DNA of 36,644 bases from Vicugna vicugna. Its lineage: Eukaryota. The position numbers and the translations under genes are program-made. The stretch lies in the NCBI GenBank assembly GCA_013265495.1, contig MU057702.1, forward strand, positions 1-36,644, read 5' to 3'. A model generated the notes under the pieces. The model was not told the DNA's origin. It saw only the letters and a program-made list of their open reading frames with translations, and searched no databases. This document shows, piece by piece, positions 1 through 36,644 of the stretch (position 1 is the stretch's first letter; every line of letters starts with the position of its first letter).

Positions 1-1592
1 TCAATATTTTTTATTCTATATTCTATATTCTGTGTTCTACATTCTTTGTTCTAAACTCTATATTCAGTATTCTGTATTCTACATTCTAAATTCTGTGTTC
101 TGCATTCTCTGTTCTAAATTCTATATTCATTATTGTGTATTCAATATTCTAAATTCTGTGTTCTGCATTCCATGTTCTAAATTCTGGGTTCTGCATTCTG
201 TTTTCCATATTTTATATTCTGTGTTCTACATTCTATATTCTGTATAGTATATCTGCAATCCGTCTTCTATATTCTATATTCTGTGTTCTACATTCTATAT
301 TATTCTGTATTGTATATTCTAAATTCTGTGTTCTGCATTCCAAGTTCTAAATTCTGGGTTCTGTATTCTGTTTTCCATATTCTATATTCTGTGTTCTACA
401 TTCTATATTTTTTATTCTATATCTGCATTCTGTACTCTATATTCTATATTGTGTGTTCTACGTTCTATATTCTTAATTCTGTATTTATTATTCTGTATTC
501 TATATTCTAAATTCTATGTTCTGCATTCCATGTTCTAAAATCTGGGTTCTATATTCCCTATTCTATATTCTGTATTCTGTGTTCTACATTCTATATTATA
601 AATTATATATTCAGTATTCTGTATTCTATATTCTACATTCTGTGTTCTCAATTCTAAGTTCTATATTCTATATTCAGTATCCTGTATTCTGTATTCTATA
701 TTCTGAGTTCATCGTTCTATATTCTAAATTCTATATTAATAATTCTGTATTCTATATTCTAAATACTTTTTTCAGCATTTCATGTTCTAAATTCTGTGTT
801 CTATATTCTCCATTATATATTTTATATTGTGTGTTCTTCATTTTATTCTCTAGATACTATATTTTGCATACCGAATTCTATATTCTAAATTCTGAGTTAT
901 AATTCTAAATTCTAAACTCTATGTTCAGTATTGTATTTTGTATATAGTGAATTCCGTGTTCTGCATTCCATGTTGAATATTCCATTTACAGTATTCTATA
1001 TTCTGTATTCTAAATTCTGTGTTCTGCAATCTCTGTTCTAAATTCTATATTCAGTTTTCTGTATTATGTATTCTAAATTCTGTGTTTGCATTCCATGTTC
1101 TAAATTCTGGATTCTATATTTTCTATTCTATATTCAAAATTCTGTGTTCTACATTCTATATTCTAAATTCTATATTGAGTATTCTGTATTCTATAATCTA
1201 TATTCATTGTTCTGCATTCTCTGTTCTAAATTCTGTATTCATTATTCTGTATTCTATATTCTAAATTCTGTGTTCTGCGTTCCATTTTCTAAATTCTTGG
1301 TTCTGTATTCTGTTTTCCATATTCTATATTCTGTGTTCTACATTCTATTTTCTGTATACTATTCTGCATTCCGTGATCTATATTCTATATTCTGTGTTCT
1401 ACATTCTATGTTCTAAATTCTATATTCAGTATTCTGTAATCTATATTCTAAATGGTGTGTTCTGCATTCTATGTTCTAAACTCCATATTCATTATTCTGT
1501 ATTCTATATACTAAATTCTGTGTTCTGCATTACATTTTCTAAATTCTGGGTTCTGTATTCTGTATAACATATGATATATTTTGTGTTCTACA

Positions 1593-1909
1593 TTCTATAT
1601 TCTGTATTCTATATTCTACATTCCGTATTCTATATTCTATATTCTGTGTTCTACATTCTATATTCTAAGTTCTATATTCAGAATTCTGTATCCTATATTA
1701 TAAATTCTGTGTTCAGAATTCCATTTTCTAAACTCTGTGTTCTATATTCTGTATTCTATATTCTACATTCCGTATTCTATATTCTATATTCTGTGTTCTA
1801 CATTCTATATTCTAAGTTCTATATTCAGAATTCTGTATCCTATATTATAAATTCTGTGTTCAGAATTCCATTTTCTAAACTCTGTGTTCTATATTCTGTA
1901 TTCTATATT
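1593..1909 (+). repeat. Near-perfect tandem duplication, period 147 bp (21 heptamers), ~2.1 copies
   Basis: Marker GAATTCTGTATCCTATATTATAAA at 1681 and 1828; ORF 1571..1990 shows a 49-aa repeat. Confidence 0.9.
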
Positions 1910-2643
1910 GTATATTGTGTGTTCTTCATCCTATACTCTACATACTATATTTTGCATTCCGTATTCTATATTCCAAATTCTGTGTTCTAAATTCTCAGTT
2001 CTAAATTCTGTATTCAGTATTCTGTTTTCTATATTCAAATTCTGTGTTCTGCATTCCATGTTCTATATACTATTTTCCGTATACTATATTCTATATTCTA
2101 AATTCTGTGTTCTGAATTCTTGTTCTAAATTCTATATTCAGTATTCTGTATTATATATTCTAAATTCTGTGTTCTGCATTCTATCTTCTAAATTCTGGAT
2201 TCCATATTCTCTTCTCTATATTCTATATTCTGTGTAGTACATTCTATATTCTAAATTCTATACTCAGTATTCTGTTTGCTATACTCTAAGTTGTGTGTTC
2301 TGCATTCCATGTTCTAAATTCTGTATTCAGTATTCTGTATTCTATATACTAATTTCTCTGTACTGCATTCCAAGTTCTAAATTCTAAATCCAGAATTCTG
2401 TATTCTATATTCTAAATTCTGTGTTCAGCATTCCATTTCTAAATTAAGGGTTCTAAATTCTCTTATATATATTATATATTTTGTGTTCTTCATTCGATAT
2501 TCCAAATTCTATATTCTGCATTTCGTATTCCATATTGTATAATCTGTGTTCTATATTCTATATACTAAATTTTATATTCAGTATTCTGTATACTATATTC
2601 TAAATTCCTGTTCTGCATTCAATGTTCTAAATTCTGGATTCTC

Positions 2644-3365
2644 TATTCTCTAATCTATATTTTATATTCTGTGCTCTACATTCTATATTCTAAATTCTAT
2701 ATTCATTATTCTGTATTCTATATTCTAAATTCTGTGTTCTGCATTCCATGTGCCAAATTCTGGTTTTCTATATTCTCTAATCTATATTTTATATTCTGTG
2801 CTCTACATTCTATATTCTAAATTCTATATTCATTATTCTGTATTCTATATTCTAAATTCTGTGTTCTGCATTCCATGTGCCAAATTCTGGTTTTCTATAT
2901 TCTCTAATCTATATTTTATATTCTGTGCTCTACATTCTATATTCTAAATTCTATATTCATTATTCTGTATTCTATATTCTAAATTCTGTGTTCTGCATTC
3001 CATGTGCCAAATTCTGGTTTTCTATATTCTCTAATCTATATTTTATATTCTGTGCTCTACATTCTATATTCTAAATTCTATATTCATTATTCTGTATTCT
3101 ATATTCTAAATTCTGTGTTCTGCATTCCATGTGCCAAATTCTGGTTTTCTATATTCTCTAATCTATATTTTATATTCTGTGCTCTACATTCTATATTCTA
3201 AATTCTATATTCATTATTCTGTATTCTATATTCTAAATTCTGTGTTCTGCATTCCATGTGCCAAATTCTGGTTTTCTATATTCTCTAATCTATATTTTAT
3301 ATTCTGTGCTCTACATTCTATATTCTAAATTCTATATTCATTATTCTGTATTCTATATTCTAAAT
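2644..3365 (+). repeat. Perfect tandem array, period 127 bp (18 heptamers + 1 nt), ~5.7 copies
   Basis: The same ORF start recurs at 2750, 2877, 3004, 3131 and 3258; the private marker CCATGTGCCAAATTCTGGTTTTC is present in each copy. Confidence 0.95.
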
Positions 3366-5966
3366 ACTGTTTTCAGCATTCCTAGTTCTAAATTCTGTGT
3401 TCTATATACTCTATTCCATATTTTATATAGTGTGTTCTTCATTTTATACGCTACATAATATATTTTGCATTCCGAATTCTATATTGTAAATTCTGAGTTA
3501 TAATTCTAAATTCTAAACTCTATATTCAGTATTTTGTTTTCTATATTCTGAATTCCGTGTTCTGCTTTCCATGTTCAATATTCTATTTTCAGTATTCTAT
3601 ATTCTGTATTCTAAATTATGTGTTCTGCAATCTATGTTCTAAATTCTATATTCAGCATTCTGTATTATGTATTCTAAATTCTGTGTTTGCATTCCATGTT
3701 CTAAATTCTGGATTCTATATTTTTATTCTATATTCTAAATTCTGTGTTCTACATTCTATATTCTATATTCTATATTCAGTATCCTGTATTCCAATTCTCT
3801 AACTTCTGTGTTCTGCATTCAAATTTCTAAATTCTGTGTTCTACATTCTCTATGCTATGTTTTATATTCTGTGTTCTACATTCTATTTTCTAAATTATAT
3901 ATTCAGTATTCTGTATTCTATATTCTAAATCCTGTGTTCTGCTTTCCAAGTTCTAAATTCTTTATTCAGTGTTCTGTTCCTATATTCTATATTCTGTGTT
4001 CGACATTCTATATTCTAAATTCTATATTCATAATTCTGTATTCAATATTCTATACTCTGTGTTCAGCAATCCATTTTCTAAATTCTGTGTTCTATATGCT
4101 CTATTGTATATTCTATATTGTGTGTTCTTCATTTAACACACTACATACTATATTTTGCATTCCACATTCTATATTCTAAATTCTGAGTTATAATTCTAAA
4201 TTCTAAACACTATATTCTGTATTCTGTTTTCTATATTAAATAATTCTGTGTTCGGCATTCTATGTTCTGAATTCTATACTCAGTATTCTGTAGTATATAT
4301 TCTAAATACTGTGTTCTGCATTCCATGTTCTAAATTTTGGATTCTGTATTCTGTTTTCCATATTCTATATTCTGTATACTACATTCCATATTCTGTATTC
4401 TATATTCTGCATTCCATATTCTATATTCTTTTTTCTGTGTTCTACATTCTATATTCTATATTTTTATTCAGTATTTTGTGTCCTATATTCTAAATTCTGT
4501 GTTCTGCATTCCAAGTTCTAAATTCTGGGTTCTATATTCTTTTTTCCATATTATATATACAGTTGTACATTCTATATTTACTATTCTATATCTGAATTCC
4601 GTATTCTATATTATATATTCTGTGTTCTACTTTCTATATTCTAAATTCTATAGTCATTTTTCTGTGTTGTATATTCTAAATTCTGTGTTCTGCATTCCAT
4701 GTTCTAAATTCTGGCTTCTATATTCTCTATTGTCTATTCTATATTCTGTGTTCTACATTCTATACTTTAAACTATAAATTTTCCGTATTCTATATTCTAT
4801 ATTCTAAATTCTGTGTTCTGAATCCTTGTTCTAAATTCTATATTAAGTATTCTGTATTATATACTCTTAATTCTGTGTTCTGCATTCTATGTTCTAAATT
4901 CTGGATTCCATATTCTCTATTCTCTATTCTATATTCAGTGTAGTACATTTTATATTCTAAATTCTATACTCAGTATTTATATGCTATAGTCTAAATTGTG
5001 TGTTCTACATTCCATGTTCTAAATTCTGTATTCAGTATTCTGTATTCTATATACTAAATTCTGTGTACTGCATTCCATGTTCTAAATTTTATATTCAGTA
5101 TTCTGTATTCTATATTCTAAATTCTGTTTTCTGCATTCCAATTCTTAATAATTTAATCAGTATTATGTATTTTATATTCTATATTCTGTGTTCTACATTC
5201 CATATTCTAAATCCTATATTCAGTATTTTGTATTCTATATTCTACATTCTGTGTTCTGCTTTCCAAGTTCTAAATTCTGGGTTCTGTATTCTGTTTTCCA
5301 TATTCTATATTCTGTGTTCTACATTCTATATTTTGTATTCTATATCTGCATTCCTTATTCTATATTCTATATTCTGTGTTCTACGTTCTATATTCTAAAT
5401 TCTGTATTCAGTATTCTATATTCTATATTCTAAATTCTGTGTGCTGCATTCCATGTTCTAAATTCTGGGTTCTATATTCTCTATTCTATATTCTATATTC
5501 TGTGTTCTACATTCTATACTATAAATTATATATTCAGTATTCTGTATTCTATATTCTAAATTCTGTGTTCTGAATTCCATGTTCTAAATTCTGGGTTCTA
5601 TATTGTGTATTCAATATTCTATATTCTGTGTTCGACATTCTATATTCTAAATTCTATATTCAGTATTCTGTATTCTACATTCTAAATTCTGTGTTCTGCA
5701 TTCTATGTTCTAAATTCTATATTCATTATTCTGTATTCTATATTCTAAATTCTGTGTTCTGCATTCTATCTTCTAAATTCTATATTCATAATTCTGTATT
5801 CTGTATTCTATATTCTGTGTTCAGTATTCCATGTTCTAAATTCTGTGTTCTATATTCTATATTCTATATTCTATATTGTGTTTTTTTAATTTTATATTCT
5901 ACATGCTATATTTTGCATTCCGTATTCTACATACTATATTCTGAGTTATAATTCTAAATTCTTAAC

Positions 5967-6284
5967 TCTATATTCAGTATTCTGTATTCTATATTCTAAA
6001 TTCTATATTCAGTATTCTGTATTCTATATTCTAAATTCTATATTCAGTATTCTGTATTCTATATTCTAAATTCTATATTCAGTATTCTGTATTCTATATT
6101 CTAAATTCTATATTCAGTATTCTGTATTCTATATTCTAAATTCTATATTCAGTATTCTGTATTCTATATTCTAAATTCTATATTCAGTATTCTGTATTCT
6201 ATATTCTAAATTCTATATTCAGTATTCTGTATTCTATATTCTAAATTCTATATTCAGTATTCTGTATTCTATATTCTAAATTCT
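5967..6284 (+). repeat. Perfect tandem array, period 35 bp (TTCTATA TTCAGTA TTCTGTA TTCTATA TTCTAAA), ~9 copies
   Basis: Eight exact copies span 6001-6280, plus one copy ending at 6000. Confidence 0.95.
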
Positions 6285-6859
6285 GTGTTCAGCATTCCAT
6301 TTTCAAAATTCTGTGTTCTATATACTCTATTCTTTATTCTATACAGTGTGTTCTTCATTTTAGAATCTACATACTATATTTCGCATTCCGTAATCTATAT
6401 TCTAAATTCTGAGTTATAATTCTAAATTCTAAACTCTATATTCAGTATTCTATTTTATATATTCTAAGTTCTGTGTCCTGCATTCTATGTTCTAAATTCT
6501 ATATTCAGTATTCTGTTTTATAATCTAAATTGTGTGTTTGCATTCCATGATCTAAATTCTGGAATCTATATTTTCTATACTATATTTTATATTCTGTGTT
6601 CTATATTCTATATTTTAAATTCTTTATTCAGTATTCTGTATTCTATAGTCTAAATTCTTTGTTCTGCATTCCATGTTCTAAATTCTGGGTTCTGTATTCT
6701 GTTTCCCATATTCTAAATTCTGTGTTCTACATTCTATATTCTGTATACCATATTCTTCATTCCGTGTTCTATATTATATATTCTGTGTTCTACATTCTAT
6801 ATTCAGTATTCTGTATTCAATATTCTAAATTCTGGGTTCTGCATTCCATGTTCTAAATT

Positions 6860-6874
6860 NNNNNNNNNNNNNNN
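6860..6874. other. Assembly gap (15 N)
   Basis: Run of N. Confidence 0.99.
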
Positions 6875-7204
6875 GGTTTCTATATATTCTATATACTATA
6901 TTCTTTGTTCTACATTCTATATTATAAAATATATATTCAGTATTCTGTATTCTAGATTCTAAATTCTGTGTTCTGCATTGAATATTCTGTATTCTAGCTT
7001 CTGCATTCCGTATTCTATATTCTATATCCTGTGTTCTACTTTCTATATTCTAAATTCTAAATCCAGAATTCTGTATTCTGTATTCTAAATTCTGTGTTCT
7101 GCATTCCATATTCTATATTCTGGGTTCTATATTCTCTACTATATACTATATTTTGTGTTTTTCATTCTATATTCTACATACTATATTCTGCATTCCGTAT
7201 TCTA

Positions 7205-7478
7205 TATTCTATATTCTGTGTTCTACATTCTATATTATAAATTAAATATTCAGTATTCTGTATTCTATATACTAAATAATGCGTTCTACATTCCAAGTTC
7301 TATATAATATATAAAGTATCCTGATTTCTGTATTCTATATTCTGTGTTCTACATTCTATATTATAAATTAAATATTCAGTATTCTGTATTCTATATACTA
7401 AATAATGCGTTCTACATTCCAAGTTCTATATAATATATAAAGTATCCTGATTTCTGTATTCTATATTCTGTGTTCTAC
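7205..7478 (+). repeat. Tandem duplication, period 126 bp (2 x 63)
   Basis: The GCG of marker AATAATGCGTTC lies at 7281 and 7407; ATTAAATATT at 7241 and 7367. Confidence 0.9.
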
Positions 7479-9525
7479 GTTCTATATTCTAAATTCTATA
7501 TTCATAATTCTGTATTCTATATTCTAAATTATGATTTCAGCATTCCATGATCTATGTTATGTGTTCTATATACTCAAATCTCTATTCTATATTGTGTGTT
7601 CTTCATTTTATAGTCTACATACTATATTTTGCATTCCGTATTCTATAGGCTATATTCTGAGTCATAATTCTAAATTCTAAAATCTATATTCAGAATTCTG
7701 TTTTCTATATTCTTAATTCTGTGTTCGGCATTCTATATTCTAAATTGTATATTCAGTACTCTGTATTCTACATTCTAAATTCTGTGTTCAGCATTCCTAC
7801 TTCTAAATTATTTATTCACTACTCTGTATTCTTTATTCTATATTCTGTGTTCGACATTCTATATTCTAAATTCTATATTCATTATTCTGTATTCTACATT
7901 GTAAATTCTGTGTTCTGCATTCTATGATTTAAATTCTATATTCATTATTCTGTATTCTATATTCTAAATTCTGTGTTCTGCATTCTATATTCTAAATTCT
8001 ATATTCATAGTTCTTTATTCTATATTCTAAATTCTGTGTTCACATTCCATCTTCTAAATTCTGCGTTCTATATTCTCTATTCTAAATTCTATATTGTGTG
8101 TTCTTCATTTTATACTCTACATACTATATTTTGCATTCCGTATTCTATATTCTAAATTCTGAGTTATAATTCTAAATTCTAAACTCTATATTCAGTATTC
8201 TGTTTTCTATGTTCTAACTTCTGTGTTCGGCATTCTATGTTCTAAATTCTATATTGTGTATTCTTTATTATATATTCTAAATTCTGTGTTTGCATTCCAT
8301 ATTCTAAATTCTGGATTCTATTTTTTCTATTCTATATTCTATATTCTGTTTTCTACATTCTATATTCTAAATTCTATATTCAGTATACTGTATTCTATAG
8401 TCTAAATTCTGTGTTGTGCATTCCATGTTCTAAATTTTGGATTCTGTATTCTGTATTCCATATTCTATATTCTGTGTTCTACATTTTATATTCTGTATTC
8501 TATATTCTGCATTCCGTATTCTATATTCTATATTCTGTGTTCTATATTCTATATTCTAAATCCTTTATTCAGTAATTTGTATTCTATATTCTAAATTCTG
8601 TGTTCTGCATTCCATGTTCTAAATTCTTGATTCTATATTCTCTTTTATATATTCTGTATTCTGTTTTCTACATTCTATATTTTTTATTCTATATCTGCAT
8701 TCCGTATTCTATACTCTGTTTTCTACATTCTATAATATAAATTATATATTTTGTATTCTGTATACTATATTCTAAATTCTCTGTTCGGCATTCCATTTTC
8801 TAAATTCTTTATTCAGTGTTCAGTATTCTATATTCTATATTCTGTGTTCGACATTCTGTATTCTACATTCTATACTCAGGTTTCTGTATTCTACATTCTA
8901 AATTCTGAGTTCTGCATTCTACGTTCTAAATTCTATATTCATTATTACTATATTCATTGTATTCAATATTCTAAATTCTGTGTTCGGCATTCTATATTCT
9001 AAATTCTATATTCAGTATTCTGTATTATATATTAAAAATTCTGTGTTCAGCCTTCCATGTTCTAAATTCTTTGTTCTATATTCTCTATTCTCTATTCTAT
9101 ATTGTGTGTTCTTCCTTTTATACTCTACATACAATATTTTGCATTCCGTATTCTATATTCTATATTCTGAGTCATAAATCTAAATTCTAAACTCTATATT
9201 CAGAATTCTGTTTTCTATATTCTAAATTCTGTGTTCGGCATTCTATGTTCTAAATTCTATATTCAGTGTTATTTATAATATATTCTAAATTCTGTGTTTG
9301 CATTCCATGTTTTAAATTCTGGATTCTATTTTTTCTATTCTATATTCTATATTCTGTGTTCTACAGTCTATATTCTAAATTCTATATTCAGTATTCTGTA
9401 TTCTATAGTCTAAATTCTTTGTTTTGCATTCCATGTTCTAAATTTTGGATTGTGTATTCTTTTTTCCATATTCTACATTCTGTGTTCTACATTCTATATT
9501 CTGTATACTATATTCTGCATTCCGT

Positions 9526-9569
9526 NNNNNNNNNNNNNNNNNNNNNNNNNNNNNNNNNNNNNNNNNNNN
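9526..9569. other. Assembly gap (44 N)
   Basis: Run of N. Confidence 0.99.
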
Positions 9570-10480
9570 TCTATATTCTCTACAATCTATATTCTAAATC
9601 CTATATTCAGTAATTTGTATTCTATATTCTAAATTCTGTGTTCTGCCTTCCATGTTCTAAATTCTGGGTTCTTTATTCTATAATCTATATTCTATATTCT
9701 GTGTTCTACATTCTAAAATTTAAATTATATATTTAGTATTCTATATTCTATATTCTAAATTCTCTGTTCTGCATTCCACGTTCTAAATTCTTTATTCAGT
9801 ATTCAGTATTCTGTATTCTATATACTGTTTTAGACATTCTATATTCTAAATTCTATATTCAAAATTCTGTATTCTACATTCTTAATTCTGGGTTCTGCAT
9901 TCTATATTCTAAATTCTATATTCAGTATTTTGTATTCTATATTTTAAATTCTGTGTTCTGAATTCCAAGTTCTAAATTCTGGTATCTGTATTCTGTTTTC
10001 CATATTCTATATTCTGTATTCTACATTCTATATTTTGTATTCTATAACTGCATTCCGTATTCTATATTCTATATTCTGTGTTCTACGTTCTATATTCTAA
10101 ATTCTGTATTCAGTATTCTGTATTCTATATTCTAAATTCATTGTTCTGCATTCCATGTTCTAAATTCTGGGTTCTATATTCTCTATTCTATATCCTATAT
10201 TCTGCGTTCTACATGCTATATTATAAATTATATATTCAGTATTCTGTATTCTATATTCTAAATTCGGTGTTCTGCATTCCAAGTTCTATATTCTATATTC
10301 AGTATCCTGTATTCTGTATCCTATATTCTGTGTCCTTCGTTCTATATTCTAAATTCTATATTAATAATTCTGTTTTGTATACTCTAAATACTGTTTTCAG
10401 CATTCCATGTTCTAAATTCTGTGTTCTATATTCTCTATTCTCTATTCTATATTGTGTGTTCTTCATTTTATACTCTACAT

Positions 10481-10501
10481 NNNNNNNNNNNNNNNNNNNN
10501 N
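10481..10501. other. Assembly gap (21 N)
   Basis: Run of N. Confidence 0.99.
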
Positions 10502-11799
10502 CTATATTTTGCATTCCGTATTCTATATTCTAAATTCTGAGTTATAATTCTAAATTTTAAACTCTATATTCAGTATTCTGTTTTGTATATTTTATATTCT
10601 GTGTTCTGCATTCCATGTTCTAAATTCTGGGTTTTATATTCCCTATTCTCTATTCTACATTCTGTGTTGTATATTCTATATTATAAATTCTATATTCAGT
10701 ATTCTGTATTCTATAGTCTAAATACTGTGTTCTGCATTCCATGTTCTAAATTTTGGATTCTGTATTCTTTTTCCCATATTCTATATTCTGTGTTCTACAT
10801 TCTATTTTCTGTATCCTATATTCTGAATTCCGTATTCTATATTCTATATTCTGTGTTCTACATTCTATATTCTAAATTTTATATTCAGTAATTTGTATTC
10901 TATATTCTAAATACTGTGTTCTGCATTCCATGTTCTAAATTTTGGGTTCTATATTCTCTATTATATATTCTGTATTCTGATTTCTACATTCTATATTTTG
11001 ATTATATATCTGCTTTCCTTATTCTATATTCTATATTCTGTGTTCTACGTACTATATTCTAAATTCTGTATTCAGTATTTTGTATTTTATATTCTAAATT
11101 CGGGGTTCTGCATTCCATGTTCTAAGTTCTGTGTTCTTTATTCTCTATTCTCTATTCTATATTCTGTGTTTTACATTCAATAATATAAATTATATATTTA
11201 GTATTCTGTATTCTATATTCTAGATTCTCTGTTCTGCATTCCAAGTTCTAAATGCTTTATTCAGTATTCAGTATCCTATATTCTATATGCTGTGTTCGTC
11301 ATTCTATATTCTAAATTCTATATTCAGTATTCTTTATTCTACATTCTAAATTCTGAATTCTGCATTCTACATTCTAAATTCTATATTCAATTTTGTGTAT
11401 TCTATATTATAAATTCTGTGTTTGGCATTCTATATTCTAAATTCTATATTCAGTATTCTGTATTCTACATTCAAAATTCTATGTTCAGACTTCCATGTTC
11501 CAAATTCTGTGTTCTATATTCTTTATTCTATATTCTATATTGTGTGTTATCCATTTTATACTCTACATACTATATTTTGCATTCCATATTGTTTATCAAA
11601 ATTCTTACTTATAATTCTAAATTCTAAACACTATATTCAGTATTCTGTATTCTATATTCTAAATTCTGTATTCTGCATTCTATGTTCTAAATTCTATATT
11701 CAGTATACTGTATTATATATTCTAAATACTGTGTTTGCATTCAATGTTCTTAATTCTGGATCCTATATTTTCTATTCAATATTCTATATTCTGTGTTCT

Positions 11800-22507: not shown

Positions 22508-22655
22508 CTACATTCTATATTCTGATTTCCGTATTCTATATTCTATTTTCTGTGTTCTACATTCTATACTCTAATTCGATATTCTGTATTCTGTATTCTA
22601 TATTCTAAATTCTGTGTTCTGCATTCCAAGCTCTAAATTGTTGGGTTCTATATTC

Positions 22656-22913: not shown

Positions 22914-25900
22914 ATATTTTTAATTCTTTGTTCTGCATTCCATGTTCTAAATTCTGGGTTCTGTATACTATATTCTATATTCTAAATTGTATATTCAGTA
23001 TTCTGTATTATATATTTTTAATTCTTTGTTCTGCATTCCATGTTCTAAATTATGGGTTCTGTATTCTGTTTTCCATTTTCTATATTCTGTGTTCTACATT
23101 CTATTTCCGTATTCTTCATTATGCATTCCTTAACCTGTATTCTAAATTCTGTGTTCTATATTCTATATTCTAAATTTTATACTCAGTATTCCGTATTCTA
23201 TATTCTATATTCTGTTTTCTACATTCTACATTCAGTACTCTGTTTTCTATATTCTAAATTCTGCGTTCTGCATCCCATGTTCTTAATTTTGTGTTCTATA
23301 CTCTCTATTCTCTATTCCATATTTTGTGTTCTTCATTATATACTCTAAATTCTATATTCAGTATTCTGTATTCAATATTCTAAATTTTGTGTTCTTCATT
23401 CCATGTTCTAAATTCTGGTTTCTATATCTCCTATTCTTTATTCTATATTCTGTGTTCTAATTTATATATTCAAAATCTATATTCACTATTCTGTATTCTA
23501 TATACTATATTCTGAGTTCTACATTCTATATTCTAATTTCTATATTCAGTATTCTGTATTCTATATTCTAAATTCTCTGTTCTGCATTCCATGTTCTAAA
23601 TTATGGGTTCTATATTCTTAGTTCTAATTCTCTATTCTATATTCTATAATCTGTGTTCTACATTCTATATTCTACATTCTATATATATTATTCTGTATTC
23701 TGTATTCTAAATTCTATGTTCTGCATTCCATTTTCTAAATTCTGTGTTCTAAATACTCTCTACTATATTCTACATTTTGTGTTCTTCATTCTATATTTTA
23801 CAATCAATATTCTGCATTAATATTGTATATTCTATATTCTGTGTTTTACATTCTATATTCTAAATACTTTATTCAGTATTCTGAATTCTAAATTCTAAAT
23901 TCTGTGTTCATTATTCCATGTTCTAAATCTATATTAAGTATTCTGTATTCTATATCCTAAATTCTGTGTTTCGCATTCTATGTTCTAAATTCTATATTCA
24001 GGATTCTGTATTCTGTATCTAAATTCTGTGTTCTGCATTCCAGGTTCTTAATTCTGGATTCTGTATTCTGTTTTCTATATTCTATAGTCTGTGTTCTACA
24101 TTCTATATTCTGCATTCTACATTCTATTTTCCGTATTCTATATTTTAAATTCTGTGTTCTTTATTCTATATTCTATATTCTGTATTGTGTATTCTGTATT
24201 CTATGTTGTAAATTCTGTGTTCGATATTCCATGTTCTAAATTCATGGTTCTATATTCTCTATTCCCTATTCTATATTCTGATTTCTACATTCTATATTCT
24301 AAATTCTATATTCAGTATTCTGTATACTATATTCTATAGTGTGTGTTCTTCATTCTAAATTCTATATTCTGTATGCAGTATTCTGTATTCTATATACAAA
24401 ATTCTGTGTTCTGCATTCCATGTTCTAAATTCAGGGTTCTATATTCCCTCTCCTATATTCTATATTTTGTGTTCTTCATTCTATATTCTACATTCTATTT
24501 TCTGCATTCCGTATTCTATTGTTATGAACTGTGTTCTACATTCTATATTCTAAATTCATTATTCTCTATTCTGTATTCTATATTCTAAATTCTCTGTTCT
24601 TATTTCCATGTTCTTAATTCTGGGTTCTATATTGTCTATTTTATATTCTATATTCTGTATTCTACATTCAATATTCCAAATTCTATAGTCAGTATTCTGT
24701 ATTCTATATTCTAAATTCTGTGTTCTGCATTCCATTTTGTACATACGATTTTCAGTATTCTATATTCTATATACTAAATTCTGTGTTCTGCGTTCTTTGT
24801 TCTAAATTCTATATTCAGTATTCTGTATTCTATATTCTATATTCTGTGTTCTACATTCTATATTCTATATTCTATATTCAGTAGTCTGTATTCTAGATTC
24901 TAAATTGTGTGTTCTGACTACATTCTATATTCTAATGCCTATATTCAGCATTCTGTATTCTATATTCTAAATTCTGTGTTCTGCATTCCATATTTTCTAT
25001 TCTGGGTTCTGTGTTCTGTATTACATACTCTATATTCTGTGTTCTACATTCTATAATGTAAATTCTTTATTCAGTATTCCGTATTATATATTCTGTGTAC
25101 TACATTCCATATTATAATTTCTATATTCATTATTCTGTATTCTATAATCTAAATTCTGTGTTCTGCATTCCATGTACTAAATTCTGCGTTCTATATTCTC
25201 TATTCTATATTCAAAATTCTGTGTTCTTAATTCTATACTCTACATACTATATTCTGCATTCCGTTTAGTTTATTCTATATACTGTGCTCTAATTTCTATA
25301 TTCTAAAGTCTATATTCAGTATTCTGTATTCTATTCACTAAATTCTGTGTTCTGCATTCCATGTTCTAAATTCTGTGTTCTATATCCTCTATTCAGTATT
25401 CTATATATTGTGTTCTTCATTGTATATTCTAAATTCTATATTCTGCGTTCCGTATTCTATATTCTTTTTCCTGTGTTCGACATTCTGTATTCTAAATGCT
25501 ATATTCAGTATTCTGTATTCTATATTCTATTTTCTATGTTCTGCATTCCATGTTCTAATTTCTGGGTTCTATAATCTGTATTCTATATTCTATATTCTGA
25601 GTTGTACCTTCTATATTCTTAATTCTATATTCAGTATTCTGCGTTCTATATTCCAAATTATGTGTTCTACCTTCTATATTCTAAATTTTATATTTAGTAT
25701 TCTGTATTACATATTCTAAATTCTGGGTGCTGCATTCCATGTTCTAAATTCTGATTTATATATTCTCAAACCTTTAGTCTATATTCTGAGTTCTACATTC
25801 AATATTCTAAATTCTATTTTCAGTATTTTGTATTCTATACTCTAAATTCTGTGTTCTGCATTCCGTGTTCTTAATTCTGTTTTCTATATCCTCTATTCAA

Positions 25901-26238
25901 TATTCTATATATTGTGTTCTTCATTGTATATTCTGCATTCTATATTCTGCATTCCGTGTTCTATATTCTATTTCCTGTGTTTGACATTCTGTAGTATAAA
26001 TACTATATTCAGTATTCTGTATTCTATATTCTATATTCTATGTTCTGCATTCCATGTTCTAAATTCTGGTTTCTATATTCTGTATTCTATATTATATATT
26101 CTGTGTTCAACCTTCTATATTCTTAATTCTATATTCATAATTCTGCGTTCTATATTACAAATTGTGTGTTCCAGATTCTATAATCTAAATTTTATATTCA
26201 GTATTCTGTATTATATATTCTAAATTCTGGGTTCTACA

Positions 26239-26675
26239 TTCCATGTTCTAAATTCTGAGTTCTATATTCCTTATTCTATATTCTATATTCTGTGTTCCGC
26301 ATTCTATATTCTAAATTCTACACTCAGTATTCTGTTTTCCATATTCTAAATTCTGGGTTCTACATTCTATATTCCAAATACTATTTTCAGTTAACCGTAT
26401 TCTATATTCTAAATTCTGTGTTCTGTATTCTATGTTTTAAATTCTATATTCAGTATCCTGTATTCTATATTCTAAATTCTGTGTTCTGCTTTCCATGTTC
26501 TAAATTCTGAGTTCTATATTCCTTATTCTATATTCTATATTCTGTGTTCCGCATTCTATATTCTAAATTCTACACTCAGTATTCTGTTTTCCATATTCTA
26601 AATTCTGGGTTCTACATTCTATATTCCAAATACTATTTTCAGTTAACCGTATTCTATATTCTAAATTCTGTGTTC
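26239..26675 (+). repeat. Tandem duplication, period 252 bp (4 x 63), ~1.7 copies
   Basis: ORFs with identical N-termini at 26292 and 26544; marker CAGTTAACCG occurs twice. Confidence 0.9.
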
Positions 26676-28690
26676 AACATTCTATATTCTAAATTCTATA
26701 TTCAGTATTCTGTATTTCATATTCTAAATTCTGAGTTCTATATTCTGAATTCTAAATTCTATATTCAGTATTTTGTATTCTATATTCTAAATTCTGTGTT
26801 CTACATTTTATATTCTAAATTCTATATTCAGTGTTTTGTAATCTATATTCTAAATTCTGTGTTCTGCATTCCATGTTCTAATTCTGTGTTCTATTTTCTA
26901 TATTCTATTTTCTATATTGTAAATACTATATACAATTTTCTGTATTCTATATTCTAAATTCTGTTTTCTGCATTCCAGTTTCTAAATTCTGAGTTCTATA
27001 TTCTGTATTCTATATTATATATTCTGTGTTCCGCATTCTATATTCTAAATTCTATACTCAGTATTCGGTATTTTATATACGAAATCCTGTGTCCTGCATT
27101 CCATGTTCAAAACTCTGGGTTCTCTATTCTGTTTTCCATATTCTAAATTCTGTGTTCTTCATTCTATATTCCAAATACTATATTCAGTAAACCGTATTCT
27201 ATACTCTAAATTCTGTGTTCTGCATTCCATGTTCTAAAATCTGGGTTCTGTATTCTGTTTTCCATATTCTATATTCTCTTTTCTACATTCTATTTTTTCT
27301 GTATTCTATATTCTGTATTCCGTATTCAATATTATATATTTTGTGTTCTACATTCTATATTGTAAAATCTTTATTCAGTATTCCGTATTATATATTCTGT
27401 GTACTACGTTCCATATTGTAATTTCTATATTCATTATTCTGTATTCTATATTCTAAATTCTGTGTTCTGCGTTCCATGTACTAAATTCAGCGTTCTATAT
27501 TCTCTATTCTATATTCAAAATTCTGTGTTCTTCATTCTATACTCTACATTCTATATTCTGCATTCCGTATTCTATATTGTATATACTGTGTTCTAATTTC
27601 TATATTCTAAATACTATATTCAGTATTCTGTATTCTATACTGTAAATTCTGTGTTTTGCATTCCATGTTCTAAATTCTGTGTTCTATATCCTCTATTCAA
27701 TTTTCTATATAATGTATTCTTCATTGTATATTCTACATTCTATATTCTGCATTCCGTATTCTATATTCTATTTCCTGTGTTCGACATTCTATATTCAAAA
27801 TACTATATTAAGTATTCTGTATTCTATATTCTATATTCTGTGTTCTACATTCTATTTTCTAAATTCTATATTCAGTATTCTGTAGTATATATTCTAACTT
27901 CTATGTTTGCATTCCATGTTCTAAATACTGGATTCTATATTTTCTATTCTATATTCTATATTCTGTGTTCTACATTCTATATTCAAATTCTATATTCACT
28001 ATTTTGTATTCTATATTCTACATTCTGTGTTCTGCTTTCCAACTTCTAAATTCTGGGTTCTGTATTCTGTTTCCATATTCAATATTCTGTGTTCTACATT
28101 GTATATTTTGTATTCTATATCTGCATCCCGTATTCTATATTCTATATTCTGTGTTCTAAGCTCTATATTCTAAATTCTGTATTCAGTATTCTGTATTCTA
28201 TATTCTAAATTCTGAGTTCTTCATTCCATGTTCTTAATTCTGGGTTCTCTATTCTCTATTCTCTATTCTATATTCTGTGTTCTAAATTCTATATTATAAA
28301 TTATATATTCAGTATTCTGTATTCTATATTCTTAATTCTGTGTTCTGCATCCATGTTCTAAATTCTGGGTTCCAATTTCTTTATTATATACTCTATATTG
28401 TGTTTTCTTCATTCTATATTTTGTATTCTATATGTGAATTCCGTATTCTCTATTCTATATTCTGTGTTTTCGTTCTATATTCTAAATTCTATATTCAGTA
28501 TTCTGTATTATATATTCTAAATTCTGTATTCTGCATTCCAAGTTCTAAATTCTGTGTTCTTTATTCTCTATTCTGTATTCAATATTCTGTGTTCTATATT
28601 CTATATTATAAATTATATATACAGTATTCTTTGTTCTATATTCTAACTTCTGTGTTCTGCATTCCAAGTTCTAAATCCTTTATTCAGTAC

Positions 28691-29098
28691 TCTGTATTCT
28701 ATATTCTATATTCTGTGTTCAACATTCTATATTCTAAATTCTATAATCAATATTCTTTATTCTACATTCTAAATTCTGTGTTCTGTAATCTATGATCTAA
28801 ATTCTATATTCATTTTTCTGTATTCTATATTCTATATTCTGTGTTCAACATTCTATATTCTAAATTCTATAATCAATATTCTTTATTCTACATTCTAAAT
28901 TCTGTGTTCTGTAATCTATGATCTAAATTCTATATTCATTTTTCTGTATTCTATATTCTATATTCTGTGTTCAACATTCTATATTCTAAATTCTATAATC
29001 AATATTCTTTATTCTACATTCTAAATTCTGTGTTCTGTAATCTATGATCTAAATTCTATATTCATTTTTCTGTATTCTATATTCTATATTCTGTGTTC
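28691..29098 (+). repeat. Perfect tandem array, period 126 bp, ~3.2 copies
   Basis: CTATAATCAA at 28741, 28867 and 28993. Confidence 0.93.
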
Positions 29099-30998
29099 TA
29101 CATTCTATTTTACATATTATATATCCAGTATTCTGAATTCTATATTCTAAATTCTGTGTTCTGCATTCCATGTTCTAAATTCTTTATTCTGTACTCTGTA
29201 TTCTATATTCTGTGTTCGAAATTCAATATTCTAAGTTCTATATCCCGTATTCTGTATTGTATGTTCTAAATTCTCTGTTCTACATTATATGTTCTTAATT
29301 CTATATTCATTATATTGTACTCTATATTCTAAATTCTGTTCTGCATTCTAAATTCTAAATTCTATATTCATAATTCTGCATTGTATATTCTTAATTATGT
29401 GTTCAGCATTCCATCTTCTAAATTCTGTGTTCTATATTCTCTATTGTATATTCTATATTATGTGTTCTTCATTTTATACTGTACATATTATATTTTGCAT
29501 TCCGTATTCTATATTATAAATTCTGTGTTCTAAATTCTAAGTTCTATATTCAGTATTCTGTTTTCTATATTCTAAATTATGTGTTCTGCATTCCAATTTC
29601 TCTACACCATTTTCAGTATTCTATATTCTATATTCTAAATTCTGTGTTCTGCATTATATATTCTAAATTCTATATTCAGTACTCTGTATTCTATACTCTA
29701 AATTCTGTGTTCTGCATTCCTTGTTATAAATTCTCTGTTCTATATCCTCTATACTATATTCTATATATTGTGTTCTTCATTCAATATTCTACATTCTATA
29801 TTCTGCAGTCCGTATTCTATATTCTATTTCCTGTGTTGGATATTCTATAATCTAAATACCATATTCAGTATTCTGTATTCTATATTCTTTATTCTATGTT
29901 CTGCATTCCATGTTCTAAATTCTGGGTTCTATATTCTGCATACTGTATTCTATATTCTGTGTTCTACCTTCAATATTCTAAATCCTATATTCAGTATTCC
30001 GCGTTCTATATTCCAAATTATGTGTTCTACCTTCTATATTGTAAATTTTATATTCAGTATTCTGTATTATATATTCTAAACACTGGGTTCTGCATTCAAT
30101 GTTCTAAATTCTGGCTTATATATTCTCAATTCTTTATTCTATATTCTGTGTTCTATATTCAATAATCTAAATTCTTTATTCAGTATTCTGTATTCTATGT
30201 CCTAAATTCTATATTCAGTATTCTGTATTCTATGTTCTAAATTTTGTCTTCTGAATTCCATGTTCTAAATACTGTGTTCTATTTTCTCTATTCTCTATTC
30301 TATATATTGTGTTTTTCATTCTATATTCTACATTCTATATTCTGCATTCCGTATTCTATATTCTATATACTTCTACATTCTTTATTCTATATACTGTATT
30401 CAGTATTCTATAATCTATATTCTAAATTCTGTGTTCTGCATTCCATGTCCTAAATTCTGGGTTCTATTTTCTCTATTCTATATTCTATATTCTGTGTTCC
30501 GCATAATTTATTCTAAATTCTACAGTCAGTATTCGGTATACTATATTCGAAATCCTGTGTTCTGCATTCCATGTTCTAAATTCTGATTTCTGTATTCTGT
30601 TATCCATATTCTAATTTCTGTTTTCTACATTCTATATTCTAAATTCTATATTCAGTAATCCGTATTCTATATTCTGAATTCTGTATTTTGCATTCTATGT
30701 TTTAAATTCTATATTAAGTATTCTGCATTCTATATTCTAAATTCTGTGTTCTGCGTTCCATGTTCTAAATTCTGGTTTTTACATTCTCTATACTTTATTC
30801 TATATACTGTGATCTACATTCTATATACTAAATTCAAAAAATCAGTATTCGGTATCCTATATTCTAAATTCTGTGTTCTACATTCAATAATCTAAATTCT
30901 ATATTCAGTATATTTTATTCTATGTTCTAAATTCTGTGTTCTGAATTCCATGTTCTAAATTCTGGGTTCTATTTTCTCTATACTTTATTCTATATTAT

Positions 30999-33900
30999 GT
31001 GTTTTTCATTCTATATTCTACATTCTATATTCTGCATTCCGTATTCTATATTCTATATCCTGAGTTCTACATTCTATATTCTAAATTCTATATACAGTAT
31101 TTTGTATTCTATATTCTAAATACTGTATTATGCATTCCATGTTCTAAATACTGGATTCTATTTTCTCTATTCAATATTCTATATTCAGTGTTCTACTTTG
31201 TATATTCTAAATTCTATATTCAGTATTCTGTATTCTATATTATAAATTCTCTCTTCTGCATTCCATGTTCTAAATTCTATATTCAGTATTCTGTATTCTA
31301 AATTATAAATTCGGTGTTCCGCATTCTATGTTCTAAATTCTATACACAGTAACCTGTATTCTATATTCTAAATCCTGTGTTCTGCATTCCATGTTCTAAA
31401 TTCTGGGTTCTATATTCTGTTTTCCATATTCTATATTCTGTGTTCTACATTCTATGTTCTCTATTCCATATTCTGTATTCTGTGTATCTGTATTCTGTAT
31501 TCTATATTCTATATTCTGTGTTCTACATTCTATATTCTAATTTCCCTATTCATTATTCTGTATTCTATATACTATATTCTGTGTTCTGCATTCCATGTTC
31601 TAAATTTTGGGTTCTATATTCTCCATTCTATAATCTATATCCTTTGTTTTACATTCAATTTTCTAAATTCTATATTGAGTATTCTGTATTCTATATTCTA
31701 AATTGTGTGTTCTAAATTCTATATTCTAAAATCTATATTCTGTATTATGTATTCCATATGCTTAATTCTGTGTTATTTATTCTATATTCTAAATTCTGTG
31801 TTCAGTATTCTGTATTCTATAATCTATATTCTGTGTTCTACATTCTATATTCTCGATTCTATATTCAGTATTCTGTATTCTATATTCTAAATTCTGTGTT
31901 CTACATTCTATATTTTAAATTTTATATCAGTATTTTATATCCTTTATTCTAAATTCTGTGTTCTACATTCTATATTCTAAATTCTGTATTCAGTATTCTA
32001 TAATCTCTATTCTAAATTCTGTGTTCTGCATTCCATGTTCTAAATTCTGGGTTCTATTTTCTCTATTCTATATTCTATATTCTGTGATCTACATTCTATA
32101 TTATAAATTCTATATTTTTTTCCGTATTCTATATTCTAAATTCTGTTTTCTGCATTCCATGTTCTAAATTCTGAGTTCTATATTCATTATTCTATATTCT
32201 ATATTCTGTGTTCCGCATTCTATATTCTAAATTCTAAAATCAGTATTCGCTATTCTATATTCGAAATCCTGTGTTCTGCATTCCATGTTCTAAATTCTGG
32301 GTTCTCTATTCTGTTTTCCATATTCTAAATTCTGTGTTCTACATTCTATATTCCAAATACTATTGTCAGTTAATCATATTCTATATTCTAAATTCTGTGT
32401 TCTGCATTCTATGTTTTATTTTCTATATTCAGTATTCTGTATTGTATATTCTAAATCCTGTGTTAAACATTCTATATTCTAAATTCTATATTCAGTATTC
32501 TGTATTCTGTATTCTAAATTCTGTGTTCTGCATTCCATGTTCTAATTTCGGGATTCTATATTCTCTATTCTATATTCAATATCCAGTGTTTTAATTCTAT
32601 ATTCTAAATTCTATATTCAGTATTCTGTATTCTGTATTCTAAATTCTGTGTTCTGCATTCCATGTTCTAATTTCGGGATTCTATATTCTCTATTCTATAT
32701 TCAATATCCAGTGTTTTAATTCTATATTCTAAATTCTATATTCAGTATACTGTATTCTATATTCTAAATTCTGTGTTTTGCGTTCAATGTTCTAATTTCT
32801 ATATTCAGTATTTTGTATTCTGTATTCTAAATTCTGTGTTCTGTATTCAATGTTCTAAATTCTATATTCAGTATTCTGTGTTCTATATTCTAAATTCTGT
32901 GTTCTGCATTCCATGTTCTAAAATCTGGGTTCTGTATTGTTTTCCATATTCTATATTCTGTTTTCTACATTCTATTTTTTCTGTATTCTATATTCTGTAT
33001 TCCGTATCCTATATTCTATATTCTGTGTTCTACATTCTATATCCTAAATTTTTTATTCTGTATTCCGTATTATATATTCTGTGTTCTGCATTCCATATTA
33101 TAAATTCTTTATTCAGTATACTGTATTCTATATTCTAAATTCTGTGTTCTGCATTCCATGTTCTAAAATCTGGGTTCTGTATTCTGTTTTCCATATTCTA
33201 TATTCTGTTTTCTACATTCTATTTTTTCTGTATTCTATATTTTGTGTTCCGTATTGTATATTCTATATTCTGTGTTCCACATTCTATATCCTAAATTCTT
33301 TATTCAGTATTCCGTATTATATATTCTGTGTTCTACATTCCATATTAATATTTCTTATTCATATTCTGTATTCTGTATTCTAAATTCTGTGTTCTACATT
33401 CTATATTTTAAATTATATATTCAGTATTTGTATTCTATATTCTAAATTCTGTGTTCTGCATTCCATGTTCTAAATTCTGGGTTTTATATTCTCTATTCTT
33501 TATTCTATATACTGTGATCTACATTCTATATACAAAATACGAAAAATCAGTATTCGCTATCCTATATTCTTAATTCTGTGTTCTACATTCAATAATCTAA
33601 TTTCTATATTCAGTATTCTTTATTCTATATTCTAAATTCTGTGTTCTGAGTTCCATGTTCTAAAGTCTGTGTTCCATTTTCTCTATATTTTATTCTATAT
33701 ATTGTGTAATTCATTCTATATTCTACATTCTATATTCTGCATTCCGTATTCTATATTCTATATTCTGAGTTTAATTTCTATATTGAAAATTTTATTTTCT
33801 GTATTCTGTATTCTATATTCTAAATTCTGTATTCTACATTCCATGTTCTAAATACTGGGTTCTATTTTCTCTATTCAATATTGTATATTCTGTGTTCTAC

Positions 33901-36131
33901 TTTTTATATTCTAAATTCTATATTAAGTATTCTGTATTCTATATTATAAATTCTGTCTTCTGCATTCCATGTTCTAAATTCTATATACAGAATTCTGTAT
34001 TCTAAATTCGGTGTTCCGCTTTCTAGTTCTAAATTCTATACACAGTAATCTGTATTCTATATTCTTAATCCTGTGTTCTTCATTCCATGTTCTAAAATCT
34101 GGGTTCTGTATTCTCTTTTCCATATTCTATACTCTGTTTTCTACATTCTATTTTTTTCTGTATTCCATATTCTGTATTCCGTATTCTATATTCTATATTC
34201 TGTGTTCTACATTCTATATTCTTATTTCTCTATTCAGTATTCTGTATTCTATATTCTAAATTCTATGTTCTGCATTCCATGTTCTATATTTTGGGTTCTA
34301 TATTCTCCATTTTATAATCTATATTCTGTGTTTTACATTCTATATTCCAAATTCTATATTGAGAATTCTGTATTCTATATTCTAACTTCTGTGTTCTAAA
34401 TTCTATATTCTAAATTCTATATTAAGTATTATGTATTCCATATACTATATTCTGTGTTCTATATTCTTTAATCTAAATTCTTTATTCAGTATTATGTATT
34501 CTATATTCTATATTCTGTGTTCTACTTTCTATATTCTCAACTCTTTATTCAGTATTCTGTATTATATATTCTAAATTCTGTGTTCTGCATTCCATGTTCT
34601 AAATTCTGGATTCTATATTCTCTATTCTATATTCAATAACCAGTGTTTTAATTCTATATTCTAAATTCTATATTCAGTATACTGTATTCTTTATTCTAAA
34701 TTCTGTGTTTTGCATTTAATATTCTAATTTCTATATTCAGTATTTTTTATTCTGTATTCTAAATTCTGTGTTCTGCATTCGATGATCTGTATTCTATATT
34801 CAGTATTCTGTATTTTATATTCTAAATTCTGTGTTCTGCATTCCATGTCCAAAATTTTGGATTCTGTATTGTTTTCCATATTCTATATTCTGTTTTCTAC
34901 ATTCTTTATTCTGTATTCTATATTCAGCATTCTGTATTCTACATTCTATATTCTGTGTTATACATTCTATATTCTAAATTCTATATTCAGTATTTTGTAT
35001 TCTGTATTCTAATTTCTGTGTTCTTCATTCCATGTTCTAAATTCTAGGTTCTATATTCTCTTTTATATATTCAATACTTGGTGTTCTTCATTCTGTATTC
35101 TACATTCTATATTCTGCATTGATTTTCGATATTCAATATTCTGTGTCCTGTATTCTGTATTCTAAATTCTATATTCAGTATTCTGTATTCTATATTCTGA
35201 ATTCTGTGTTGTATAGTCTATATTCAAAATTCTAAATTTAGTATTCTGTATTCTAAATTCTATATTCAGTATTCTGTATTGTATTATCTAATTTCTGTGT
35301 TCTGCATTCCATGATCTAAATTCTGGCTTCTATATTCTCTATTATATTTTCTACATTTTGTGTTCTTCTTTCTATATTCCACATTATAAATTCTGCATTC
35401 CGTATTCTGCTTTATATATTCTGTGTTTTACATTCTATATTCGAAATTCTATTTTCAGTATTCTGTATTGTATTATCTAATTTCTGTGTTCTGCATTCCA
35501 TGTTCTAAATACTGGGTTCTAAATTCTCTTCTCTATTCTAAATTGTGTGATTTTCATTCTATATTCAACATACTATAGTCTACATTCCATACTCTATATT
35601 CAATATTATGAGTTCTACATTCTATATTCTAAATTCTATATACAGTATTTTGTATTCTATATTCTAAATTCTGTATTATGCATTCCATGTTCTAAATACT
35701 GGGTTCTATTTTCTCTATTCAATATTCTATATTCAGTGTTCTACTTTGAATATTCTAAATTCTATATTCAGTATTCTTTATTCTATATTATAAATTCTCT
35801 CTTCTGCATTCCATGTTCTAATTTCTATATTCAGTATTCTGTATTCTAAATTATAAATTCGGTGTTCCGCATTCTATGTTCTAAATTCTATGCACAATAA
35901 ACTGTATTCTATATTATTAATCCTGTGTTCTGCATTCCATGTTCTAAAATCTGGGTTCTGTATTCTGTTTTCCATATGTTATATTCTGTTTTCTACATTC
36001 TATGTTTTCTGTATCCTATATTCGGTATTCCGTATTCTATATTCTATATTCTGTGTTCTACATTCTATATTCTAATTTCCCTATACATTATTCTGTATTC
36101 TATTTTCTAAATTCTGTGTTCTGCATTCCAT
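30999..36131 (+). repeat. Dispersed duplicated block (about 31000-31600 and 35550-36131, offset 4548 bp), with a more diverged related copy near 33850-34400
   Basis: Homologous ORF pairs 30999/35547 and 31377/35925; shared TGTATTATGCATTCC, TTATAAATTCGGTGTTCCGC and TTTCCCTAT markers. Confidence 0.8.
32469..32748 (+). repeat. Tandem duplication, period 125 bp (2 x 63 - 1)
   Basis: TCTAATTTCGGGA at 32541 and 32666; ATCCAGTGTTTT at 32581 and 32706. Confidence 0.9.
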
Positions 36132-36501
36132 NNNNNNNNNNNNNNNNNNNNNNNNNNNNNNNNNNNNNNNNNNNNNNNNNNNNNNNNNNNNNNNNNNNNN
36201 NNNNNNNNNNNNNNNNNNNNNNNNNNNNNNNNNNNNNNNNNNNNNNNNNNNNNNNNNNNNNNNNNNNNNNNNNNNNNNNNNNNNNNNNNNNNNNNNNNNN
36301 NNNNNNNNNNNNNNNNNNNNNNNNNNNNNNNNNNNNNNNNNNNNNNNNNNNNNNNNNNNNNNNNNNNNNNNNNNNNNNNNNNNNNNNNNNNNNNNNNNNN
36401 NNNNNNNNNNNNNNNNNNNNNNNNNNNNNNNNNNNNNNNNNNNNNNNNNNNNNNNNNNNNNNNNNNNNNNNNNNNNNNNNNNNNNNNNNNNNNNNNNNNN
36501 N
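36132..36501. other. Assembly gap (370 N)
   Basis: Run of N. Confidence 0.99.
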
Positions 36502-36644
36502 TACATTCTATATTCTAAATTCTGTATTCAGTATTCTATAATCTCTATTCTAAGTTCTGTGTTCTGCATCCAATGTTCTATATTCTGGGTTCTGTATTCT
36601 GTTTTCCATATCCTACATTCTGTGTTCTACATTCTATATTCTGT

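Follow-up and report, generated by a model that had tools for sequence, protein, structure and literature searches.

A 63-bp satellite beneath a heptamer repeat

Contig MU057702.1 of the Vicugna vicugna assembly GCA_013265495.1 reads at first sight as a degenerate 7-letter repeat, which raises the question of whether a longer unit is concealed within it and, if so, how that unit arose and whether it serves a function. The stretch analyzed (positions 1 to 36,644 of the forward strand, hereafter the window) is satellite DNA built of 63-base units that lie beneath the apparent heptamer repeat. The array (1..36644, consensus heptamer TTCTATA on the + strand) comprises 5248 heptamers and 604 monomer segments, 527 of which are complete 63-bp monomers; it fills the entire window and continues past both ends. 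Self matches on the minus strand are absent from the window, indicating a single, head-to-tail orientation without inverted elements, and there is no non-satellite insert, the TTC count staying at 10 or more per 140 bp throughout. Except for assembly gaps, all features described below lie on the + strand.

A preliminary description of this DNA had proposed a position-specific 63-bp (9 x 7) monomer and had expected autocorrelation to rise at 63 and 126. Raw identity was higher at lag 63 (0.651) than at lags 56 (0.582) and 70 (0.564), as was the case in 9 of 9 four-kb blocks, and higher at lag 126 (0.571) than at the flanking heptamer lags of 119 (0.505) and 133 (0.496). With indels corrected for, identity reached 0.753, 0.768 and 0.760 at lags of 9, 18 and 27 heptamers, compared to ~0.66 at lags of 8 and 10; shuffling the order of the heptamers gave 0.676 +/- 0.002, with a maximum of 0.680 in 200 shuffles. 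Tandem Repeats Finder (TRF) reported both a period of 7 (65% matches, score 17028) and a period of 63 (74%, score 24920) over positions 4-36128. Cyclic hidden Markov models (HMMs), in which the state number K equals the heptamers per cycle, were trained on one half of the array and scored on the other. Across K=1-14 they displayed a sharp peak at K=9 (-0.696 bits per base), compared to -0.855 at K=8, -0.825 at K=10, -0.925 at K=1 and -0.880 at K=3, while longer cycles scored above K=9 (-0.663 at K=18 and -0.637 at K=27). The 9-state profile reproduced all nine of the monomer words proposed earlier. Thus, lag identity, TRF and the held-out HMM peak each bear out the 63-bp monomer. The outcome named beforehand as fatal to it, identity at lag 63 no higher than at lags 56 or 70, did not occur.

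Identity of the monomers amounts to 78.8% with nine repeats of the plain heptamer, 86.1% with the 63-bp consensus and 77.7% between pairs of monomers; their divergence from the half-type consensus is 8.4%. The heptamer words form a one-step network centered on TTCTATA, and TTC is retained at 84-97% per base in all nine heptamer positions. Both levels are therefore visible, and descent of a complex satellite from a simple 7-mer, as suggested at the outset, is the best reading, one that we infer from the layers now present.

Some details of the preliminary description were slightly in error. The first word of the monomer, placed at positions 31, 94 ... 893, is in phase, but each listed coordinate lies 3 bases downstream of where the word begins; the exact word stands at 6 of the 10 listed sites, the remaining 4 being in-phase variants. 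Of the 358 intervals between exact copies of the word, 175 measure 62-64 bp. The proposed BsmI ladder in 63-bp multiples would be blurred: in a complete in silico digest, 125 of 238 fragments fell within 2 bp of a multiple of 63, and further bands would appear at 91 and 97-98. An in silico NlaIII digest was cleaner (90 of 128 fragments).

Half-monomers, ordered types and domains

The two levels described earlier are both real, but the half-monomers, the ordered types, the 126- and 189-bp units, the patch duplications and the domains were missed. Identity at lags of 4 and 5 heptamers is raised (0.684 and 0.688, compared to a background of ~0.655) and monomer positions 3-4 are similar to positions 8-9 (0.76 and 0.81), so the monomer represents a 28+35 pair; a complete A-type monomer with its 28-bp left half and 35-bp right half is exemplified at 28..90. 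Cross-validated mixtures supported about five types for each half-monomer. The 527 complete monomers fall into six types (A, 235; A2, 54; B, 114; B', 35; C, 67; D, 22), whose consensuses differ from one another at 3-16 of 63 bases, and one-base deletions are fixed in monomer subtypes.

The types are ordered over short distances. Mutual information was 0.887 bit from left half to right half and 0.799 bit from right half to the next left half (null maximum 0.06), while whole-monomer order information amounted to 0.834, 0.469 and 0.245 bit at lags 1, 2 and 3 and was at the null level by lag 4. The preferred order yields A-B (126 bp) and A-B-C (189 bp) units, together with a recurring A-B-C-D-A-B cassette; the six-monomer example at 7969..8343 bears two diagnostic 1-bp deletions. 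D is preceded by C at -1 in 20/21 cases, by B at -2 in 20/20 and by A at -3 in 18/18. Because order memory fades within four monomers, the array is a patchwork rather than a fixed long higher-order repeat (HOR) of the alpha-satellite type, which was likewise rejected in view of the irregular spacing of the D cassette (7-35 monomers). In the relevant passages of PMC8122249, HORs of that type are described as adjacent multi-monomer blocks that are 97-100% identical and constant in order.

On a larger scale the array consists of two domains. The left domain (1..21200, its end being approximate at 21.0-21.5 kb) holds the D cassette and 21 of the 22 D monomers, with a nearest-neighbor identity of 94.6%; the right domain (21201..36644) is composed of A, B and C types almost without the D cassette, with a nearest-neighbor identity of 92.7%. 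Their boundary near 21.2 kb falls in contiguous sequence and not at an N gap. Nearest neighbors lie inside their own domain in 78% of cases, compared to 52% expected, and 72 of 74 duplicated blocks, which reach 1057 bp in length, have both copies on the same side of the boundary. Patch duplications measure 0.3-1 kb; over lengths of at most 1 kb, the best of the long duplicates share 89-98% identity. The longest (11232..14298) matches 11232-12283 with 13246-14298, 1057 bp at 91.3%.

Perfect duplications, assembly and coding potential

Ten perfect tandem duplications occur between positions 1593 and 32748, in seven of which the unit measures 63 or 125-127 bp. In 7 of the 10, whatever the unit length, there are exact matches of 147-177 bp, near short-read length. 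A 127-bp A-B dimer is present in 5.7 copies at 2644..3365, representing either a young expansion or an assembly artefact, a 126-bp dimer in 3.2 copies at 28691..29098, and a single 63-bp monomer in 3.4 copies at 18998..19210. The run at 5967..6284 contains 9.1 copies of a 35-bp (5-heptamer) unit out of 63-bp phase, and may reflect either an assembler loop or the emergence of a shorter period amid 63-bp units. Some of the perfect duplications may be gap-filling artefacts.

If the 63-bp structure as a whole were a product of assembly, one would point to the five N gaps in the window (22656..22913, 6860-6874, 9526-9569, 10481-10501 and 36132-36501) and to the ten perfect duplications, whose 3-87 bp of junction homology could reflect assembler loops. 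However, the period is carried by diverged copies, identity at lag 63 being still 0.751 with the perfect duplications masked, and the one-base deletions are fixed in subtypes. Moreover, 20 public DNA runs from 8 studies (7 when a possible source study is excluded) with 3 organism labels contain 0.39-0.49 of 586 sampled 31-mers from the window; two small runs whose share was 0.01-0.04 were set aside. No RNA runs were among the listed holders of these 31-mers. A companion possibility is that the window encodes a hydrophobic repeat protein, as the monomer can be read without a stop in one + frame and positions 6300-36644 contain 31 stop-to-stop frames of at least 120 amino acids (the longest 229, several mostly N). 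Protein searches nevertheless returned just 3 matches among 4369 candidates, each a low-complexity simple-repeat translation (range 38-55% identity, with 46-62% of the query covered). An artefactual or coding reading is thus largely refuted for the 63-mer, and we assign it a negligible probability. Spurious hydrophobic frames rich in Y, I, L, S and F (+ strand, 6300-36644) might mislead gene callers. Rfam gave no matches at gathering score in 6300-36644 (30345 of the 36644 bases).

The array is AT-rich (74.5% AT, 25.5% GC in the window), and its strand asymmetry is strong and constant, with a GC skew of about -0.3 and an AT skew of about -0.34 in each kb. Substitutions from the subtype consensus are rich in transversions (G>T 0.060, A>T 0.047 and T>A 0.034, compared to A>G 0.026 and T>C 0.021), a spectrum unusual for mammalian germline DNA; the excess could stem from a mutation bias of heterochromatin or from assembly error. 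The observed/expected ratio of CpG is 0.38 in the window, and the G of consensus CpGs has become A in 16% of 68 sites, compared to 4.8% elsewhere. Both the depletion and the G>A excess suggest methylated heterochromatin DNA.

Probable growth by mutation and unequal exchange

We consider it probable that the window is a non-coding heterochromatic satellite that grew from a TTCTATA-type heptamer through rounds of point mutation together with unequal exchange guided by homology, for which slippage or break repair of equivalent effect could stand in. The layers lie nested in the array, and it is from them that we infer their order in time and the mechanism of exchange. Amplification would have begun with a short stretch of mutated heptamers (28-35 bp), and a 28+35 pair would then have given rise to the 63-bp monomer. 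The appearance of variants A, B and C would have followed, their spread taking the form of A-B and A-B-C units, together with a longer D cassette in one domain. From that stage on, with long exact homology almost solely at multiples of 63, new misalignments would tend to preserve phase. With the perfect duplications excluded, there are 43, 67, 60 and 48 exact runs of at least 20 bp at lags 63, 126, 189 and 252, compared to 0-7 at the remaining 32 heptamer lags. Since the homology available for misalignment sits at multiples of 63, exchange preserves phase and the period would be self-maintaining without selection.

A toy model was started from a pure heptamer, subjected to mutation and homology-dependent duplication and deletion, and stopped at the observed divergence. 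With exchange it developed an arbitrary multi-heptamer period (4-40 heptamers) with an identity excess of 0.01-0.35, depending on the rates; without exchange the excess was 0.01. The excess observed in the array is ~0.09-0.10. As the model yields periods of arbitrary length, a period of nine heptamers needs no function. The role of the array would likely be passive, as bulk heterochromatin of a pericentromeric region or short arm, where it is presumably located.

Several findings weigh against this account. With low exchange the toy model decayed without a period, 11 of 16 runs having an excess of 0.03 or less, so its outcome is parameter-dependent. The 63-bp register is broken by 49 phase jumps in the array, and three of the perfect duplications (units of 35, 138 and 147 bp) are out of register. 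T>A exceeds T>C (0.029 vs 0.019) even in heptamer columns 1-2, possibly including assembly error. Finally, 99.4% of the 63-bp phase signal resides in heptamer columns 4-7, TTC being the same across positions, and only 6 of 160 neutral simulations reached the observed gap between columns. Because a neutral model expects the signal to be spread evenly, its confinement to columns 4-7 argues against neutrality.

Possible constraint on the TTC triplet

The difference between in-phase and off-phase identity for columns 1-7 was 0.001, 0.002, 0.000, 0.064, 0.265, 0.247 and 0.152, respectively, and is thus concentrated in the spacer and nearly nil in TTC. One explanation retains the same history but makes it non-neutral: the TTC recurring at 7-bp intervals (GAA on the opposite strand) would form a putative docking lattice for heterochromatin-seeding zinc fingers of the ZNF512/ZNF512B type, a proposal that we regard as unlikely. 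Ma et al. in 2024 reportedly identified TTC as the triplet of ZNF512/512B. Variants that hit TTC would arise without spreading, leaving the four spacer bases free to build monomer types, which we likewise consider improbable. Consistent with such a lattice, 1 of 22 alleles at a frequency of 10% or more lies in TTC, compared to 37 of 84 at 2-10% (Fisher p=3e-4), and 1 of 9 distinct substitution types in TTC is common, compared to 10 of 12 elsewhere (p=0.0115 by permutation, the best 3-column window being selected), both domains behaving alike. Recent private changes strike TTC at an ordinary rate (461/1137). The long linkers of ZNF512/512B are described as aiding repeat recognition across species (in passages of 10.1101/2024.10.22.616524), and these proteins are located on H3K9me3 pericentric heterochromatin (in passages of PMC11602157).

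However, the avoidance of TTC depends on the threshold chosen (corrected p 0.84 at 5%, 0.064 at 7.5% and 0.13 at 25%), and a spanning tree of 20 subtype words places 5 of 20 changes in columns 1-3. TTC is intact in only 3986 of 5141 heptamers, and chance with few founding events can produce the pattern, as it did in a few of the neutral simulations cited above. ZNF512 goes unmentioned in the passages checked from two reviews (PMC12692304 and 10.64898/2026.05.25.727640). The avoidance may therefore reflect contingency, or constraint by proteins that read spaced triplets. That the window represents an undescribed camelid satellite family in which every round of amplification kept TTC at its 7-bp spacing, as a putative zinc-finger landing lattice, is a possibility to which we attach little weight. 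If true, the lattice would be a natural record of selection by a binding protein on satellite sequence, with the spacing of the triplets readable from the array. The TTC result makes it possible to test directly whether proteins that seed heterochromatin influence the sequence of satellites; failing that, the array is an ordinary satellite.

Other functional and ancestral explanations

The 126- or 189-bp unit, being of roughly nucleosome length, might instead mark the array as a functional centromeric satellite and serve as a putative carrier of CENP-A. HMMs of 126 and 189 bp do outscore that of 63 bp, and centromeric loci were left uncharacterized in the part of the alpaca catalogue consulted (PMC13751797). 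Yet the CENP-B box core is absent from both strands of the window, and an active centromere core is expected to be the most homogeneous part of its array, as described for the horse in passages of PMC13477059. Here, monomers are no more alike than the pairwise value given above, order memory is lost by four monomers, and even the best long duplicates fall short of full identity. We therefore hold a centromeric role to be very unlikely.

B-type monomers carry a putative TEAD core (CATTCC on the + strand), which suggests a transcription-factor platform similar to that of HSat3. The core occurs 196 times in the window, 153 of these within the longer RCATTCCW context, and human HSat3 is bound by TEAD at the same core, according to passages of 10.1101/2024.10.22.616524. 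Its density in the window is nevertheless ~5.5 cores per kb, whereas the HSat3 reporter described there has 104 cores within 1.8 kb, and the motif columns in the window are no better kept than their neighbors (0.941 vs 0.925, p=0.49), 61.1% of motifs being intact compared to 61.2% expected. Selection on the TEAD core is thus unsupported, and a platform of this kind appears highly improbable.

The restriction of variation to four columns could also have an ancestral cause. A CpG-rich heptamer with two CpGs in columns 4-7, decaying through methyl-CpG mutation into the present vocabulary of words, would account for variation in exactly those columns; 58.5% of heptamers have pyrimidine-purine-pyrimidine-purine there, and transitions make up 12 of 22 common alleles. 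Arguing otherwise, the commonest pair at both putative CpG sites is TA (47% each) and not TG or CA, and CpG-compatible transitions constitute 6 of 20 old changes, compared to 18.6% of recent ones (p=0.15). A CpG-rich ancestor is accordingly unsupported, and we give it only a slim chance. The TTCTATA-type ancestor remains our preferred starting point.

Status among camelid satellites

Vidal-Rioja in 1987 reportedly distinguished five camelid density satellites of 32-66% GC, and the vicuna repeat could be a light fraction known by density only. SAC-SAT, attributed to Mendoza Cerna et al. (Genomics, 2026), is said to have a 267-bp motif. The 2026 alpaca catalogue, in the part consulted (PMC13751797), comprises VpaSat01-20 and gives consensus motifs for 14 of them (VpaSat01-05 and 08-16), at 1.8-8.5 kb and 28.2-69.5% AT, unlike the 63-bp unit at 74.5% AT found here. 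Six diagnostic words of the array are absent from the first 400 bases of each of these 14 motifs, and to that extent the earlier remark that the repeat was not recognized as a named family stands. The catalogue gives no consensus for VpaSat06, 07 and 17-20, and primer design failed at low-complexity loci (PMC13751797). Of the primers listed there for VpaSat06 and VpaSat07, 4 of 4 show 6-8 mismatches at best in the window. The vicuna repeat could be one of the six loci without a consensus. The start of the VpaSat01 motif, so far as it is visible in Table S3 of PMC13751797, has what we take to be a resemblance to the 3' end of L1. An L1-like start would suit both the amplification of VpaSat01 in non-camelids and its lack of signal in fluorescence in situ hybridization (FISH).

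In the open-access literature, we found no description of a 63-bp heptamer-based satellite; the VicPac3.1 genome paper does not contain the word "satellite", and the Melters 2013 supplements (PMC4053949) gave no matches, an uninformative result, as the portion of the table examined contains no sequences. Exact repeat patterns had 0 loci in viral contigs, metagenomes and GTDB genomes, as expected for mammalian DNA. The 63-bp satellite is probably uncatalogued, but its type of architecture is well known.

In practical terms, the camelid satellite catalogue probably lacks this array. To annotators it would look like a 7-mer of low complexity, and an assembly-guided survey dependent on unique primers would pass over it; its consensus and monomer types now enable oligo-FISH probes and a repeat-library entry. 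It also provides an unusually clean case in which the steps from a simple word to units of 63, 126 and 189 bp are legible on a strict 7-bp grid, which makes exchange rates and phase measurable and constraint on individual columns testable.

Comparison with known satellites

Human HSat2 and HSat3 resemble the vicuna array in being large arrays of a short word with an ATTC core and in the presence of the TEAD core. They differ in being built on a pentamer rather than a heptamer, and the vicuna array has ~tenfold fewer TEAD cores per kb. Identity with these GGAAT satellites was rejected, as identity at lag 5 is 0.389, compared to 0.655 at lag 7. The expansion of HSat3 is thought to date to great apes (in passages of 10.1101/2024.10.22.616524). 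In the beetle Palorus subdepressus, two variants of a 72-bp satellite alternate as 144-bp dimers (in passages of PMC8122249), resembling the A-B unit of 126 bp, and, as is proposed for the vicuna monomer, the 72-bp monomer derives from a short word; the Palorus satellite, however, has octamer and 22-bp inverted units, whereas the vicuna array has no inverted elements.

Two mouse satellites also offer parallels. TRPC-21A-MM has units of 21, 42 and 63 bp, HORs, 27-31% variability and 48-50% GC (in passages of PMC3218096), and shares with the vicuna array unit lengths in multiples of 7. It was rejected as the same satellite, since its basic unit is 21 bp and its GC content is nearly twice that of the window, in which K=3 also performed poorly compared to K=9. 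Mouse major satellite is composed of 7-11 bp subunits, 28+30 bp halves, 58-60 bp monomers and a 234-bp tetramer, with variable ~2-kb HORs and ~30% monomer variability (in passages of PMC3218096). Identity with it was rejected as well, given that the periods here are 63, 126, 189 and 252, and neither 58-60 nor 234 is among the top 60 lags up to 3000. Its words and lengths differ from those of the vicuna array, which keeps to the strict 7-bp grid, lacks a fixed tetramer (showing instead a mixed order of A-B, A-B-C and cassette) and has 25.5% GC, compared to up to 37% in the mouse. Nevertheless, both are AT-rich and similarly nested, here at 7, 28+35, 63 and 126/189 bp and in patches of up to 1 kb. 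By analogy of described design, the vicuna array may thus be viewed as a hierarchical satellite of short-word origin whose architecture is like that of mouse major satellite.

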